A stretch of 60,576 nucleotides of DNA from a bacterium (GTDB lineage Bacteria; Patescibacteriota; Microgenomatia; Daviesbacterales; UBA10151), in contig JAJYNW010000016.1 of NCBI GenBank assembly GCA_021786105.1, positions 1-60,576 on the forward strand, written 5' to 3'. The translations under genes were made by a program, and so were the position numbers. The first letter of the stretch is position 1, and each line of letters starts with the position of its first letter. Positions 1,948 through 34,746 of this stretch are shown here, piece after piece. The notes under the pieces are model-generated. The model was not told the origin of the DNA, made no database searches, and saw nothing but the letters and a program-made list of their open reading frames with translations.

Positions 1948-3117
1948 ATGAGTTTAAAAGTTGGAATTATAGGAATGCCCAATGTGGGGAAAAGTACCCT
2001 TTTTAATGCCCTTTTGAAAAAGAGGGTGGCTTTAAGTGCTAATTACCCGTTTGCTACCATTGAGCCGAATGTGGGGGTGGTGGCGGTGCCTGATTCTAGG
2101 TTAAATGAGCTGGCGGAATTGGTAGCTGTGGAGGAGGGAATGATCCCGCAGGAGATCCTGAAACAAGTTCAGGATGACACCCCTGGGGTGGAGGCACAAA
2201 AATATTTTCCCCCGATTGTGCCGGCAGTGGTAGAGTTTGTAGATATTGCCGGTTTAGTTAAAGGTGCGGCAACTGGGGCAGGATTAGGGAATAAATTTTT
2301 ATCTCATATCCGGGAAGTGGATGCAATTGTGCATGTTTTACGGGATTTTGAAGATGCCAATATTATCAGGGAAGGCTCAGAAAACCCAAAATCAGATAAA
2401 GAGATCATAGAAACAGAGTTAATCCTGGCAGATATTGAAACAATAGATAAATTAATTTCTTTTGCAGAAAAAGAATTAAAGTTCTCTAAGGATCCTTTAG
2501 ACCCTAAAAAATTAGAGATTTTAAAAAAGATTAAAGAAGATTTAGATAAGGGAACTTGTATAGGGGATAAATTAATAAAAACCGCTGAAGGTATGGATCA
2601 GAGAATGCGGGGCTGGATTACTACGTTACCTCTTTTATCAATTAAACCGGTTTTATATGTTTACAATGTAGGAGAGGATCAATATAGTCAAATATCCTCC
2701 GATCGTGGTACAAATGAAAATGAAATGGCTATTTCAGCCAAAATGGAAGAGGAGTTAGCTGATTTGTCAGATGAGGAGAGGTTGGAATACTTAAAAGAGT
2801 TAGGGGTTGAGGAAACTGGTTTGGAAAGGCTGATTAAAAAGGCTTATGTTTTACTCGGATTAATTTCCTTTTTGACAGCCGGCAAAAAAGAAGTCCGGGC
2901 CTGGACTATAAAAAAAGGAACTTTGGCTCCCCAGGCTGCTGGGGTAATCCATACTGATTTTGAAAAAGGTTTTATTAGAGCTCAAGTTGTTAGCTTTGAA
3001 AAATTAATTGAAGCAGGATCTTTAGCAGTTGCTAAATCAAAAGGCTGGGTGAGGACTGAAGGAAAAGATTATATTATGCAGGATGGAGACGTGGTGGAGT
3101 TCTTGATCAGTTCTTAG
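1948..3117 (+). CDS. ychF: Ribosome-binding ATPase YchF
   Basis: GMPNVGKST, ANYPFATIEPN, DIAGLVKGA, C-terminal TGS domain (GKDYIMQDGDVVEF). Confidence 0.97.
   Translation: MSLKVGIIGMPNVGKSTLFNALLKKRVALSANYPFATIEPNVGVVAVPDSRLNELAELVAVEEGMIPQEILKQVQDDTPGVEAQKYFPPIVPAVVEFVDIAGLVKGAATGAGLGNKFLSHIREVDAIVHVLRDFEDANIIREGSENPKSDKEIIETELILADIETIDKLISFAEKELKFSKDPLDPKKLEILKKIKEDLDKGTCIGDKLIKTAEGMDQRMRGWITTLPLLSIKPVLYVYNVGEDQYSQISSDRGTNENEMAISAKMEEELADLSDEERLEYLKELGVEETGLERLIKKAYVLLGLISFLTAGKKEVRAWTIKKGTLAPQAAGVIHTDFEKGFIRAQVVSFEKLIEAGSLAVAKSKGWVRTEGKDYIMQDGDVVEFLISS
2152..2190. repeat. Two abutting palindromic repeat modules inserted in frame in ychF
   Basis: gagatcctgaaacaagttcaggatgac (2152-2178) then cacccctggggtg (2178-2190); encodes EILKQVQDDTPGV. 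Confidence 0.75.
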
Positions 3118-17682: not shown

Positions 17683-17784
17683 TATAATCGCTTGCGATTA
17701 CATCGCGACGCTTCTTGTAACGCGTTGCGTTATAATCGCTTGCGATTACATCGCGACGCTTCTTGTAACGCGTTGCGTTATAAT
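17683..17784. repeat. Perfect 2 x 48-bp tandem duplication upstream of manC
   Basis: tataatcgcttgcgattacatcgcgacgcttcttgtaacgcgttgcgt at 17683 and 17731, plus a third tataat at 17779. Confidence 0.92.
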
Positions 17785-24533: not shown

Positions 24534-25115
24534 TTAGCTTATCATATTTAACTTTTGAATTTTGGCTTTAAATTCCTCCAAGGTGCCGTTGTTTTCGATC
24601 TTAATGTCGGCTTTTTTGGAAATTTGGGGAATGTCTTTTTCTGCTTTGGATTTTTCTTCTTTTAAAAATTGCTCAAAGGTCAGCCCAACTTCGCCGACTT
24701 TTTCACTTCTGGTCTTTAACCTTTGGTATCTTAATTTTTGGCCGGCGGTAATATAAATTAGAGTACTGTTTTTAAAGCTTCGAACTAATCTGGCTTCAGC
24801 TTCACGTCTGACTCCGTCAAAAATCACAATGTCAGCAGTATCGCCTTCAACGGAAAACTTGGCCGCTTTAGCCAAAGCTGTCTGGCCAAAAGTTTCACTC
24901 ATCATTAAGGCCAACTTTTGTAAATTGGCTCTGGTGATGGGAATATCCCACATAATTAAAGTTTCGGCCAAAATATCGGAAAACCTTACCTGCCTAATTT
25001 TTAATACCTCCCCTTTGTCATTGCGAGGACTGTAGGACGAAGCAATCTGTTTTATAAAATTGACAAAGGTTTGCTTGCCGGATCCTTTTTCGCCCACTAA
25101 ACCAAAAATTTGCAT
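24534..25115 (-). CDS. P-loop NMP kinase / dephospho-CoA kinase-like protein
   Basis: GLVGEKGSGK, FDGVRR, ADIKIENNGTLEEF; contains a repeat-derived insertion. Confidence 0.75.
   Translation of the reverse strand: MQIFGLVGEKGSGKQTFVNFIKQIASSYSPRNDKGEVLKIRQVRFSDILAETLIMWDIPITRANLQKLALMMSETFGQTALAKAAKFSVEGDTADIVIFDGVRREAEARLVRSFKNSTLIYITAGQKLRYQRLKTRSEKVGEVGLTFEQFLKEEKSKAEKDIPQISKKADIKIENNGTLEEFKAKIQKLNMIS
25017..25048. repeat. Half GTCAT-family repeat in frame in the kinase gene
   Basis: gtcattgcgaggactgtaggacgaagcaatct; its reverse complement is 31/32 identical to 34196-34227. Confidence 0.88.
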
Positions 25116-31338: not shown

Positions 31339-31349
31339 ATACTTACTTG

Positions 31350-31432
31350 TGCCGAGGGAGGGAGTCGAACCCTCATGATCTTGCGATCAATAGATTTTGA
31401 GTCTATCGTGTCTACCATTCCACCACCTCGGC
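31350..31432 (-). tRNA. tRNA-Leu(CAA)
   Basis: Acceptor stem GCCGAGG/CCTCGGC, anticodon arm ATAGA-CTCAAAA-TCTAT, long variable arm, GGTTCGACT; CCA not encoded. Confidence 0.96.
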
Positions 31433-31509
31433 AATTTAACTACTTGAGGCATTATACCAATTTTAGCTTTACGAAGAAAGAATAAAGAGATGCTTTATTT
31501 TATGTCTGT

Positions 31510-31534
31510 ACAAATGTCCTCCGGCCGTGGTACA
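31510..31534. repeat. 25-bp direct repeat, left copy (inverted arms acaaatgt/acatttgt span 31510-31539)
   Basis: acaaatgtcctccggccgtggtaca, identical to 32041-32065. Confidence 0.93.
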
Positions 31535-31544
31535 TTTGTGATAA

Positions 31545-32039
31545 ATGACTAGGTTTCCTAGCAAGCGAAAGGCTTTAACTGATTTAGTTTTACTCGCTTT
31601 GGAGAAATCAGTTGATGGTTATGTGAGTTTTGAAGATTTTATCTATAATCCTTTGCTGGAAAGACCGGTTAAGAAACCAGCTCTTTCCCAAGTAATTAAA
31701 CGATTAAGAGAAAAAGGTTTTATTGAATTTGTAAAGGATGAAGAATTGATTTTACGATTAACAGATTCCGGTAAAGATAGAGCATTGTGGGCAAAAATGA
31801 GAAGTGGAGATGAGAAATGGGATGGTAAATGGAGGTTGGTGGTTTGGGATATTCCAGAGAAAAGAAGACAGGCTCGCGATTTGTTAAGGTTTAAATTGAA
31901 ACAGCTAGGATTTAAACAATGGCAGCAAAGTATTTGGGCTTCAAAGATAAACTGCACAAAGCTATTAAGAGATTTTATTAAGCAAGTCGGGATAGAGGAT
32001 TGGGTGATGGTAATTGAATCTGATAATATTGGGAATTGA
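31545..32039 (+). CDS. wHTH plus Cas2-like (PaaX central domain) protein
   Basis: ALSQVIKRLREKGFI...LRLTDSGK then WDGKWRLVVWDIPEKRR...LKQLGF...QQSIW. Confidence 0.88.
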   Translation: MTRFPSKRKALTDLVLLALEKSVDGYVSFEDFIYNPLLERPVKKPALSQVIKRLREKGFIEFVKDEELILRLTDSGKDRALWAKMRSGDEKWDGKWRLVVWDIPEKRRQARDLLRFKLKQLGFKQWQQSIWASKINCTKLLRDFIKQVGIEDWVMVIESDNIGN

Positions 32040-32040
32040 G

Positions 32041-32065
32041 ACAAATGTCCTCCGGCCGTGGTACA
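32041..32065. repeat. 25-bp direct repeat, right copy
   Basis: Separated from the stop codon by 1 nt; identical to 31510-31534. Confidence 0.93.
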
Positions 32066-32157
32066 AATGAAATATAAAGGATTTAGATCGGGTAAGACTG
32101 GACAAGAGATTGTGATTTAGGTAAAGTACCAAACAGAATTAAGGAAAGGGGTAAACT

Positions 32158-34746
32158 ATGAAAAACAAAGTTAGATTACCGGTACATGTTAAACCCCAGC
32201 GCTACAAAATTATGCTCCGGCCGGACCTTGAGCAGTTTACCTTTTACGGCGAAGAAACAATCGAATTGTTGCTGGATAAACCCGCTAAGCAAATCACTCT
32301 CCACTCAGCTGAGCTGGAAATAGATTCAGCAGAATTCATCCATCAAGATAAACAGGTCTGGGCAGGTAGGATCTCCTATGATGTTAAAGCTGAAACCGCC
32401 ACCTTTACTTTTCCCAAAACTCTTCTCAAAGGCAGAGGGCAGCTAAAACTAATGTTTAGGGGAATTTTAAATGATAAAATGCGGGGTTTTTACCGTTCAC
32501 GCTATGAAGTGGGCGGAGTTTCAAAACATATCGCGACCACCCAATTTGAATCGACTGATGCCAGGCGGGCTTTTCCTTCTTTTGATGAGCCTTCACAAAA
32601 AGCTATTTTTGATGTGACTTTAATGGTGCCGGCTAATTTAACCGCTATTTCAAACACTATGGAATCTAATGTGTTGGAGCATGAAAGCGGTTACAAAACT
32701 GTTGAATTTGCCCCTACCCCAAAAATGTCTACCTATTTGCTGGCCTTTATTGTGGGAGATTTTGAATATATTGAAAAAGAGACTGAAGATAAAGTCAGGG
32801 TCAGAGTTTTTACCACTCCTGGTAAAAAAGCCCAAGCCAAGTTTGCGTTAGATGTGGCAGCCAAATGCTTGGAATTTTACAATGATTATTTTGGAATTAA
32901 ATACCCGCTGCCCGTACTTGACATGATTGCTATCCCGGATTTTGCAGCCGGAGCCATGGAGAATTGGGGAGCGGTAACTTACCGGGAATCCACTTTGTTG
33001 ATTGACGAAGCCAGTTCCTCTTCAGCCAATAAACAATGGGTGGCCATGGTGATTGCCCACGAACTGGCCCACCAGTGGTTTGGTGATTTGGTTACTATGG
33101 AGTGGTGGACTCATTTGTGGTTAAACGAAGGCTTTGCTTCGTTCATTGAATATTTAGCTGTAGATCATATCTTTCCGGAGTGGGATATCTGGACTCAATT
33201 TGTAGCTACCGAGTTGTCTGATGCTTTTGAGCTGGATTCGTTAAAAAATACGCACCCGATTGAGGTGGAAGTAAAAAATCCGGCTGAAATTTCCGAGATT
33301 TTTGACCGGGTGTCATATTCCAAGGGAGCTTCGGTTTTAAGAATGTTGTGGAAGTATTTAGGGGAGAAGGATTTCCAAAAAGGTTTGCAGTATTATTTGA
33401 AAAAACATGCCTACGGTAATGCCCAAACTGAAGATTTATGGCAAGATTTGGAAGAAAAATCCGGTAAACCCGTCAAAAAGGTAATGAAAAACTGGACCTT
33501 GCGGGCGGGACACCCGGCGGTAAGGGTACAGGTAACAGGCAACAGGCTACTGTTAAAACAGAGTAGATTCTTTTCTAGTCCAATCTCTAAGAATCAAACT
33601 AAGGATAATACAATTTGGAATATTCCGGTGAGAATAGGAAAGGAGCAGTTTTTGCTGGATAAAAAATCTATGTCCATTCCCAACCAGGGAGAAAAGTTAA
33701 ATAGCGGGGAAGTATCTTTGGTCCGGGTGGATTACCCCCGAGATTATTTGTATGGATTGGAAGATTCAATAAAAAGCGGTAAATTATCTGCTCCGGACAG
33801 GTTGGGACTAATTAGGGATAGCTTTGATTTGGCTCAATCAGGTAATTCCCCGACCACTTTAGCTTTGGAGCTGGCTTTAAATTATATAAACGAGGAAGAC
33901 TACACAGTTTGGTCAACACTCACCGGGCACCTTAGTCAGTTGGACAGCTTATTGGCGTATGAGGATTTCTACGAAGATTTTAGAAGCTTTGGCAGAAAAA
34001 TTTACAGCGGAATTGCCGAAAAATTAGGTTGGGAAAAGAAAAAAGGGGAAAAGCACACCGACGGATTGCTTCGGGGCATAGTGTTATATAAATTAGGCTC
34101 TTTTGGAGAGTTGGAAACAATCAAAAAAGCCCAGGAATTATTTTCCTCCTCCCGTCATTCTGAGCGATTAGCGAAGAATCTTCCACGATCGGAGAAGATT
34201 GCTTCGTCCTACAGTCCTCGCAACGACAAGGGTATTGATCCGGATCTTCGCAGCCTGGTTTATAACCTGGTGGCTCAAAATGGCAGCACCAAAGAATTTA
34301 ATACTTTAGTTAAGATGTACAAAGAGGCAGATAACCAGCAGGAAAAAGACCGGATTGGCCGCAGTTTAGGTTTATTCCCGTCTAAAACTATTTTGCAAAA
34401 GGCTTTGGATTTTGCCATTTCCAAACATGTCAGATACCAAAATAGTTTGCAGATAATTGCTTCGGTCTGGAGTAATCCTCAGGGGCGGTATTTGGCCTGG
34501 GAATTCGCTAAAAAGAACTGGAAACTACTCAAAGAAAGGTATGCCGGCGGACATTATTTTACCCGGGTTTTCGCCCCGGCAGGCGAGTTTACCAAAAAAG
34601 AAGATGCCAAAGATATTGAAAGGTTTGTGAAGATTAACCCGGTGCCTGAGGCCAAAAGAACCATTGCTCAAGCCTTGGAGCAAATTTATTCCAATGCGGA
34701 GTGGTTAAAAAGGGATAAGGATAAGATTAAAAATTTTTTAGGGTAA
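32158..34746 (+). CDS. pepN: M1 family aminopeptidase with ERAP1-like C-terminal domain
   Basis: GAMENWG, HELAHQW...E (HEXXH-18-E), YSKG. Confidence 0.96.
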   Translation: MKNKVRLPVHVKPQRYKIMLRPDLEQFTFYGEETIELLLDKPAKQITLHSAELEIDSAEFIHQDKQVWAGRISYDVKAETATFTFPKTLLKGRGQLKLMFRGILNDKMRGFYRSRYEVGGVSKHIATTQFESTDARRAFPSFDEPSQKAIFDVTLMVPANLTAISNTMESNVLEHESGYKTVEFAPTPKMSTYLLAFIVGDFEYIEKETEDKVRVRVFTTPGKKAQAKFALDVAAKCLEFYNDYFGIKYPLPVLDMIAIPDFAAGAMENWGAVTYRESTLLIDEASSSSANKQWVAMVIAHELAHQWFGDLVTMEWWTHLWLNEGFASFIEYLAVDHIFPEWDIWTQFVATELSDAFELDSLKNTHPIEVEVKNPAEISEIFDRVSYSKGASVLRMLWKYLGEKDFQKGLQYYLKKHAYGNAQTEDLWQDLEEKSGKPVKKVMKNWTLRAGHPAVRVQVTGNRLLLKQSRFFSSPISKNQTKDNTIWNIPVRIGKEQFLLDKKSMSIPNQGEKLNSGEVSLVRVDYPRDYLYGLEDSIKSGKLSAPDRLGLIRDSFDLAQSGNSPTTLALELALNYINEEDYTVWSTLTGHLSQLDSLLAYEDFYEDFRSFGRKIYSGIAEKLGWEKKKGEKHTDGLLRGIVLYKLGSFGELETIKKAQELFSSSRHSERLAKNLPRSEKIASSYSPRNDKGIDPDLRSLVYNLVAQNGSTKEFNTLVKMYKEADNQQEKDRIGRSLGLFPSKTILQKALDFAISKHVRYQNSLQIIASVWSNPQGRYLAWEFAKKNWKLLKERYAGGHYFTRVFAPAGEFTKKEDAKDIERFVKINPVPEAKRTIAQALEQIYSNAEWLKRDKDKIKNFLG
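34154..34227. repeat. Full GTCAT-family dimeric repeat in frame in pepN
   Basis: gtcattctgagcgattagcgaagaatct...agattgcttcgtcctacagtcctcgcaacgac; encodes RHSERLAKNLPRSEKIASSYSPRND. Confidence 0.9.

Follow-up and report, generated by a model that had tools for sequence, protein, structure and literature searches.

A small PaaX-like protein with a Cas2-type aspartate is encoded between two copies of a palindromic, operator-like site in Patescibacteria

Introduction

PaaX is the phenylacetyl-CoA-responsive repressor of paa operons. It is autorepressed: by occupying its own promoter it keeps RNA polymerase away, and the sites it recognizes are inverted repeats with a long spacer between them, TGATTC-N27-GAATCA (PMC9493321). 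In this study we describe the gene for a PaaX-like protein of 164 amino acids (aa), here called mini-PaaX, on contig JAJYNW010000016.1 (assembly GCA_021786105.1) of a bacterium of the Daviesbacterales (Patescibacteriota); the whole stretch of 60,576 nucleotides (nt) that was analyzed is referred to as the window. The gene lies between a tRNA-Leu gene and pepN and is enclosed by two perfect copies of a 25-nt direct repeat. A preliminary description of the window had proposed that this open reading frame (ORF) could be a minimal mobile cassette excised by recombination between the repeats, or else a regulator with operators at both ends. A survey of the protein family favors the second proposal.

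Set beside PaaX (E. coli W structure 8a39, 3l09, and Rv0674, 3kfw; PF07848, PF20803, and PF08223; TIGR02277), which is its best fold match, mini-PaaX has the same order of a winged helix and then a Cas2-like domain, but it is half the size, lacks the PaaX_C effector domain, and scores 28 bits against the cut-off of 264.55 of the NCBIfam PaaX equivalog TIGR02277. It has no paa genes nearby; its paralogs, of which there are 3 to 5 per genome among the loci sampled, neighbor dprA, the gene for elongation factor P (EF-P), a Mur ligase gene, and others. It also keeps a Cas2-type Asp where E. coli PaaX has Ser, and its putative operator, built around a CGRYCG core, recurs at the stop codon. Cas2 (TIGR01573, PF09827) and VapD share the ferredoxin-like fold of its C-terminal domain, with an Asp at the end of β1. 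Unlike Cas2, mini-PaaX is fused to a DNA-binding winged helix, scores at the cut-off of TIGR01573 and below that of PF09827, and occurs in 3 to 5 copies per genome (loci sampled), each beside housekeeping genes; no CRISPR-like array was found in the 60-kb window, in which cas1 itself was not searched for.

Two other groups of regulators offer partial parallels. LacI (O1-O2), DeoR, and GalR loop DNA through an auxiliary operator hundreds of base pairs (bp) away, and mini-PaaX likewise has two matched operator-like sites, about 530 bp apart, that one protein is predicted to bind. Here, however, the auxiliary site is fixed at the regulator's own stop codon, the pair encloses only the regulator gene, and there is no helical phasing. 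Autoregulated repressors of the MarR and PadR families resemble mini-PaaX through a weak winged-helix match, in sequence and fold, and a palindromic operator over their own promoter, but mini-PaaX presumably dimerizes via its Cas2-like domain rather than a MarR helical bundle, and its Pfam MarR scores are below the cut-offs. A literature search returned no paper linking PaaX with Cas2, the candidate phyla radiation (CPR), Patescibacteria, or Microgenomates, and none citing PF20803. To our knowledge, almost nothing is known about gene regulation in the ultra-small CPR/Patescibacteria.

Results

The 25-mer ACAAATGTCCTCCGGCCGTGGTACA is present in two exact copies, both on the plus strand, at 31510-31534 and 32041-32065 (0 mismatches). 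The left copy ends 10 nt 5' of the ATG of the regulator gene, and the right copy begins 1 nt 3' of its stop codon, so that the perfect bracket reported in the preliminary description is confirmed. A search of the whole 60.6-kb window for the 25-mer, with up to 3 mismatches allowed, gave these two copies and no other, and 100 dinucleotide-preserving shuffles served as a control; no shuffled window (0/100) contained a match, and no chance repeat is therefore expected. With a looser criterion, the similarity around the pair spans 34 nt at 88%. The left copy belongs to a 30-bp palindrome, ACAAATGT (31510-31517)-N14-ACATTTGT (31532-31539), which reads in full ACAAATGT-CCTC-CGGCCG-TGGT-ACATTTGT and has its core, CGGCCG, at 31522-27. 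The 8-bp inverted arms around a 14-bp core noted earlier were thus found as described (31510-31539), as was the extended -10 element TGgTACATT (31528-31536). Around the palindrome we recognize a -35-like TGTACA (31507-12), an 18-nt spacer, the TG of the extended element (31528-29), and a -10-like TACATT (31531-36), with the ATG at 31545, 8 nt after the -10.

We then asked how general this arrangement is. More than 533 proteins are homologous to mini-PaaX at E ≤ 0.001. The best 120 homologs listed are 63-100% identical to it, and their named sources are mostly Candidatus Daviesbacteria and other Patescibacteria; the few names that they bear in databases include "Cas2" (CRISPR-associated endonuclease) and "phenylacetic acid (degradation) repressor." With one genome per species, 528 family loci were found (numbered with the prefix L), and the bracket statistics that follow refer to the best 80 of these 528, among which several genomes have 3 to 5 paralogs. 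Comparison of the 200 nt 5' of each start codon with the 200 nt 3' of each stop codon revealed shared flanking sequence that is each locus's own, such as 35 bp in L002, 36 bp in L020, 33 bp in L041, and 30 bp in L025; a CGRYCG core is common to all of these bracket repeats. The core is present upstream in 73 of the 80 loci, mostly 14-18 nt 5' of the start codon, and downstream in 66, mostly 0-13 nt 3' of the stop codon; 61 loci have both sites. Correcting over-extended start codons added an upstream site in five further loci, bringing the count to about 78/80. By comparison, the background density of CGRYCG is 0.24 per kb, or about 1.5% per 64-nt stretch. Cores beside regulators are also palindromic in their surroundings (mode, 8-9 of 13 arm pairs complementary, versus 2-3 for cores elsewhere), and the consensus of the site is CA-N9-CGRYCG-N9-TG.

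The two sites of a locus resemble each other more than they resemble those of other loci. Outside the core, arm identity is 67% between the two copies of one locus versus 39% between loci, and in 33 loci the best of the 61 candidates is the locus's own partner. The central dinucleotide of both copies agrees in 52 of the 61 loci, and it varies (GC, AT, AC) among orthologs of the pepN group. Whether homologs each carry a flanking pair of their own, a question raised by the preliminary description, is answered in the affirmative by these 61 loci and their locus-specific pairs. Because the bracket layout is common to most family members, the repeats are functional sites rather than the scar of a recent insertion, and the two copies are most likely the palindromic binding site of the regulator itself. 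Paralogs of the regulator lie beside unrelated housekeeping genes: pepN, dprA, and the genes for EF-P, Mur ligase, RNase HII, arginyl-tRNA synthetase (ArgRS), sortase, and phosphoribosyl pyrophosphate (PRPP) synthetase. A scan of metagenome contigs with TCCTCCGRYCGTGGTA gave no solo site among the matches listed, which are mostly chance ones in unrelated high-GC contigs; the only relevant ones among them, in L113, L191, and L192, are all beside regulator homologs.

The anatomy of a promoter is likewise seen in much of the family. A perfect TTGACA -35 occurs in 38 of 73 upstream sites, and 39/73 upstream sites pass a two-hexamer promoter test, versus 10/66 downstream sites. Family-wide, the -10 box is followed by the start codon within 5-10 nt and there is no Shine-Dalgarno sequence. 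Given a start codon placed right after the -10 and no Shine-Dalgarno sequence, the regulator mRNA is probably leaderless.

We next considered the protein. Pfam domain PF20803, the central Cas2-like domain of PaaX, matches residues 90-162 with 77.7 bits (cut-off, 24; E = 7e-22), which bears out the earlier assignment of this region to the Cas2-like fold of PaaX. Winged-helix matches in Pfam (MarR-type, residues 42-76, and HTH_27) are weak, and all fall below their cut-offs. Among Cas2 models, TIGR01573 of NCBIfam scores 24.5, exactly its cut-off; PF09827 scores 13.4 against a cut-off of 23.8; and those of PADLOC score 15-24 bits. PaaX_C has no Pfam match at E ≤ 1: the protein stops at residue 164, directly after the Cas2-like domain, and its profile alignment to 8a39 ends at residue 171 of the 316 in that chain. 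An AlphaFold (AF2) model built from 25 homologs (mean predicted local distance difference test score, 76.6) has three helices and a β-wing at residues 7-72, then a long linker helix, and at the C terminus a β-α-β-β-α-β arrangement with its strands and helices within residues 92-159. Foldseek against the PDB ranked E. coli PaaX (8a39) at the top, followed by the PaaX-like structures 3l09 and 3kfw and the MarR-family repressors PefR and PecS; matches to the winged-helix fold include MarR and PadR proteins besides PaaX. The Cas2 chains 3exc, 5xvn_F, and 5zyf fit the C-terminal domain with root mean square deviations of 2.4-3.0 Å over 64-77 columns.

The preliminary description had placed the Asp of a WDIP motif at the position of the Cas2 aspartate, and a profile search agrees, pairing it with the VVYDV aspartate of Cas2 SSO8090 (PDB 3exc); E. 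coli PaaX has Ser there. This residue, Asp102, is invariant in 80/80 homologs. Across the same 80 sequences, which extend down to 30% identity, W92, D93, G94, W96, R97, D102, E105, R111, R115, F123, Q127, and S129 are invariant, and conservation is higher in the Cas2-like half than in the winged helix. In sequence and predicted structure, then, the protein is a "mini-PaaX" that comprises the first two PaaX domains, does without the C-terminal effector domain, and keeps the Cas2-type Asp.

The downstream site differs from the upstream site in its promoter-like features. In the window it has a changed right outer arm (ACAAATGA), a poor -35, and a -10 without the final T; family-wide, a perfect -35 is found in 6 of 66 downstream sites. 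This copy is probably an operator only. The left end of the downstream copies typically overlaps the stop codon (TGACA, TAGACA). No terminator-like hairpin was found at the downstream site, and an RNA element or terminator there was rejected because no hairpin forms and the fold is weaker than that of shuffled sequences (z = +1.64).

pepN appears to have a promoter of its own, the element being conserved 5' of pepN in L001-L011, and the center of the second site is near -78 relative to it. Two loci, L008 and L009, have about 450 bp inserted between regulator and pepN, which places pepN about 500 bp from the regulator; in both, the promoter stays with pepN and the second palindrome stays at the regulator's stop codon. 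The next neighbor is codirectional in 58 of 78 loci. Of the 20 loci followed by a convergent ORF (called crudely, so that some of these ORFs may be spurious), 15 keep the downstream site; three such neighbors, assigned by eye, are ROK glucokinase-, RseP protease-, and GT2 glycosyltransferase-like. Because the downstream site stays at the regulator's stop codon and persists before convergent genes, the second copy belongs to the regulator gene. Within the pepN paralog group, the downstream copy was rejected as the pepN promoter, since pepN has its own and downstream sites are rarely promoter-like. Control of pepN, which had been suggested earlier, is doubtful: pepN has retained a promoter of its own, the regulator unit is also found in the absence of pepN, and pepN is not demonstrably a target of the regulator.

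In some paralogs the downstream position, to judge from its sequence, also serves as promoter for the neighboring gene: in L029, dprA starts at an ATG inside the downstream site, as does a gene for a 303-aa protein in L015 and L018. The site pair in L050 brackets the neighboring gene, not the regulator, and dprA in L023 has a third, separate perfect promoter palindrome (TTGACATTAACTTCTCGACCGAGAATATAATG) directly 5' of it. Two irregular loci may be mentioned here. In the region 4510-4915 of L023, between the downstream site and dprA, there is an insert of about 380 nt with a possible short antisense helix-turn-helix ORF, seen by eye, and the promoter palindrome of dprA follows it. At 1158-1215 of L008, a GC-rich, hairpin-like insert, CCCCCGGCTCGCCTCGCTCCGCTCGTCGGAGCGGG, stands in place of the left half of the downstream palindrome, of which only the right half, GTCGTGGGACAAATGA, remains.

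If recombination between the repeats excised the gene, one site should be left behind, as the preliminary description pointed out, and empty loci with a single repeat should then be found between tRNA-Leu and pepN. Eight further pepN loci were sampled for presence or absence of the regulator unit. Three are occupied, and five (L202-L205 and L208) are empty, with the tRNA followed by 45-110 nt and then pepN; none of the five has a CGRYCG site between tRNA and pepN, so that zero copies remain instead of one. The same tRNA-Leu adjoins the regulator unit in L001-L013 and is also present at the empty loci L203 and L204. On the pepN tree, empty loci are interspersed among occupied ones. In the closest such pair, L205 (empty) and L206 (occupied), the pepN genes are 81-90% identical in DNA, and the whole interval from DnaB to the pepN start, including the tRNA and the pepN promoter, is non-homologous; the difference is the replacement of a variable island, not excision between repeats. 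In four metagenome runs, contigs cross the locus without any difference, and no excision joint was found, these being assembled contigs, which drop rare variants. No recombinase or transposase was found in the unit, a single ORF for a winged helix-turn-helix and Cas2-like protein, or among the neighbors checked.

The phylogeny speaks to descent in the same family. Paralogs within a genome are 45-78% identical (median, 53%); regulators in the pepN slot form one clade (support, 0.97) adjoining the clades of the dprA slot; and those in the dprA slot diverge in step with PBP2 and DprA. From these slot-specific clades, the co-divergence, and the age of the paralogs, we conclude that descent has been mostly vertical, with no recent copying. 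Linkage of the regulator to pepN and to dprA is conserved across many species. Other loci point to exchange. The pepN of L207 is 80-82% identical to those of L001, L002, and L004, whereas its regulator is only 41-49% identical to theirs and groups with L069 and L070. In L020, a family unit of another clade occupies the slot between DnaB and tRNA-Leu and is followed by EF-P, with no pepN. The tRNA-Leu-side slot is thus occupied by at least three lineages (the pepN clade, L207, and L020). The regulators of L011 and L013 are 86% identical versus 61% for pepN, and those of L015 and L018 are 90% identical versus 62% for PBP2. As read from these comparisons, the regulator unit has been gained, lost, and replaced as a block over evolutionary time. 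Of the idea of a minimal mobile cassette, block exchange over evolution is supported; excision mediated by the repeats is not, in view of the empty loci with zero copies, the contigs without joints, and the old paralogs.

Two features near these loci were seen in passing. In L206 (about 1606-1625 and 1732-1815), and also in L207 and L209, a second copy of the first 16-20 nt or so of the tRNA-Leu 3' end (TGTGCCGAGGGAGGGA) occurs 110-160 nt past the tRNA; the duplication resembles an old integration footprint and is on the side away from the regulator unit. In L205 (1-1216), an intein with a LAGLIDADG homing endonuclease domain interrupts the DnaB gene that precedes the tRNA and pepN.

A third operator-like site lies in the window, inside ychF (Table 1). 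It equals the downstream copy at 22 of 24 arm positions, is a 4-mismatch copy of the repeat, and encodes QISSDRGTNEN. The site is nearly unchanged in the YchF gene of L201, which is 71% identical, 10 of 11 synonymous positions being kept versus 56% gene-wide (p = 0.017). This conservation in sequence suggests that the regulator may have targets in trans. We rejected the possibility that the site is a palindrome inserted in frame, since the length of the region is normal in 120 YchF homologs. The same region of YchF is a hot spot of in-frame insertions in other Daviesbacteria.

pepN itself has an in-frame insertion of about 27 aa at 34154-34227 (SSSRHSERLAKNLPRSEKIASSYSPRND). Most orthologs, among them L001-L003 and L006, do not have it, and in L004 and L007 other insertions occupy the same place. 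The DNA of the insertion is an imperfect palindrome whose center on the opposite strand, CTC-CGATCG-TGG, equals the inner core of the regulator's putative operator, and its right half recurs at 25015-25048 (97%). A perfect palindrome, TCCGGCCGGA, is found at 32208-32225, 50 nt inside pepN; it has TCCGGCCG in common with the operator core and may be due to chance. The remaining neighbor in the window is an ORF resembling short-chain dehydrogenases/reductases (SDR), assigned by eye, and at 17683-17784 there is a perfect 48-nt tandem repeat (2.1 copies), TATAATCGCTTGCGATTACATCGCGACGCTTCTTGTAACGCGTTGCGT.

Table 1. Positions of the regulator gene, its flanking sites, and neighboring features in the window
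Feature	Coordinates	Strand	Description	Basis or remark
mini-PaaX regulator gene	31545..32039	+	164 aa; winged helix-turn-helix, linker helix, C-terminal Cas2-like domain, Asp102	
Upstream site	31507..31544	+	putative sigma70-like promoter overlapped by palindromic operator	sequence; function predicted
Downstream site	32041..32070	+	putative second operator copy, core CGGCCG at 32053-58	1 nt 3' of stop codon
pepN promoter (predicted)	32099..32127	+	TGGACA-N17-TAAAGT	promoter scan; downstream of second site
pepN, downstream neighbor	32158..34746	+	M1 aminopeptidase	ORF; Pfam Peptidase_M1 families on homologs
tRNA-Leu(caa)	31349..31432	-	regulator unit on its 5' (promoter) side, not 3' end	ARAGORN
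Third operator-like site, inside ychF	2688..2719	+	TCAAATATCCTC-CGATCG-TGGTACAAATGAAA	listing of every CGRYCG in window

Discussion

We consider it reasonably probable that mini-PaaX is a self-repressing regulator with one operator in its promoter and an auxiliary operator at its stop codon, the alternative of the preliminary description that the 61 two-site loci and their locus-specific pairs favor. This model takes as its starting points the observed repeats, protein fold, family-wide bracket, locus-specific pairing, and promoter-like anatomy; from their sequences we infer binding, repression, looping or roadblock, and leaderless transcription. The protein would be a small repressor of the PaaX lineage, built from a winged helix and a Cas2-like domain for dimerization and nucleic acid binding and lacking a ligand-binding C-terminal domain. 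A dimer would bind the palindrome of about 30 bp that the consensus describes. As the upstream operator fills the gap between the -35 and -10 elements of the gene's own promoter, binding would shut off the gene's transcription, and the transcript, starting at or beside the ATG, would be leaderless. The second copy would serve as an auxiliary operator of the regulator gene, not of pepN, either by closing a loop of about 530 bp with the promoter operator or by forming a protein roadblock where the terminator is missing. Selection for the specificity of one protein, gene conversion, or both may keep the 25-bp copies identical. Read in this way, the system is an autoregulated repressor of the PaaX/MarR type in which both the composition of domains and the operator-gene-operator arrangement are new.

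Several observations weigh against this model or are left unexplained by it. The purpose of an operator fixed at the stop codon is unexplained, as is the invariant Cas2-type Asp, for which a pure repressor, with the Ser of E. coli PaaX in view, offers no explanation. Paired operators, spaced 518-563 bp apart, show no helical phasing, which is uninformative for loops of about 530 bp, and unrelated housekeeping genes are odd neighbors for the paralogs of a dedicated local regulator. The distribution of the unit is patchy, and a family member that is not its ortholog can take its place. Similarity of the operator arms tracks the Cas2-like domain (r = 0.43; partial r = 0.42, p = 0.0005) and not the winged helix, its correlation with the predicted recognition helix being r = 0.08-0.12; this pattern probably reflects overall relatedness combined with a noisy N-terminal alignment, and it lends no support to the binding model. 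Finally, none of the stretch was found in the metatranscriptomes of the same study.

How far do other explanations account for the same features? One is that mini-PaaX is a local regulator of the downstream gene, with the second copy controlling pepN and the first serving ordinary autoregulation. The prevalence of codirectional neighbors (58/78), the linkage to pepN and dprA kept across many species, the genes that start inside the downstream site (dprA in L029 and the 303-aa gene in L015 and L018), and the pair that brackets the neighboring gene in L050 would all fit such a role. We nevertheless think it unlikely, because a conserved promoter of pepN's own lies 40 nt further downstream and travels with pepN in L008 and L009; downstream sites are rarely promoter-like and persist before convergent genes; five relatives have pepN but neither regulator nor site; and L020 has a family unit in the same slot without pepN. 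The proposal that the repeats are att-like sites, between which recombination would release the ORF as a circle, one copy staying behind, has in its favor the perfect direct repeats, their inverted arms around a core, and the repeat pairs of the homologs. Yet empty loci hold zero copies instead of one, the contigs of four runs contain no joints, the upstream copy is the gene's predicted promoter, and the repeats have been kept between species with pepN identities of only 58-77%, a distance over which neutral scars would not persist; we regard this explanation as highly improbable.

A further possibility is an exchangeable or selfish module, in which the protein recognizes the terminal palindromes, the Cas2-like domain nicks or bridges the CGRYCG core, and regulation is secondary. 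We hold it to be quite unlikely. Interspersed presence and absence on the pepN tree (5 empty and 3 occupied of 8), at least three unrelated lineages in the tRNA-Leu-side slot, and regulators closer to each other than their neighbors are (86% versus 61% in L011/L013, 90% versus 62% in L015/L018) are what such a module would produce, and each unit has its own promoter between unrelated housekeeping genes. The invariance of Asp102 and the greater conservation of the Cas2-like domain over the winged helix would agree with it too, as would the central dinucleotides of the two sites, which co-vary as crossover regions do. Against this stand the lack of a recombinase or transposase and of junctions or circles in contigs, and the fact that no genome holds copies close to identity (at most 78%; median, 53%). 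Slot-specific clades and co-divergence with neighbors indicate mostly vertical descent, and the interval replacement of L205/L206 is expected from ordinary homologous exchange of a variable island. The nuclease activity of Cas2, moreover, is dispensable even in CRISPR adaptation. The boldest combination of these ideas is a minimal patescibacterial module whose winged-helix-Cas2-fold protein represses itself and also uses the invariant Asp to work on its own palindromes, by nicking or bridging the CGRYCG core or in some other way, and this we rate as distinctly unlikely. If it were true, an Asp-dependent module would undergo block-wise gain, loss, and swapping between housekeeping genes and would be a counterpart, on a Cas2 fold, of RAYT/REP or homing modules.

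The favored reading, self-repression between two operators, would bear on gene regulation in the Patescibacteria in several ways. The database names "CRISPR-associated endonuclease Cas2" and "phenylacetic acid degradation repressor" that family members carry are corrected by the domain composition described here. If the reading is true, the family offers paired sets of proteins and operators with a defined palindrome of about 30 bp and clear sites, together with a probable leaderless promoter architecture and the unusual design of a regulator gene enclosed by its own operators. In addition, the invariant Asp, along with the gain, loss, and replacement of the unit as a block, may mark a DNA-acting protein of the Cas2 fold outside CRISPR.

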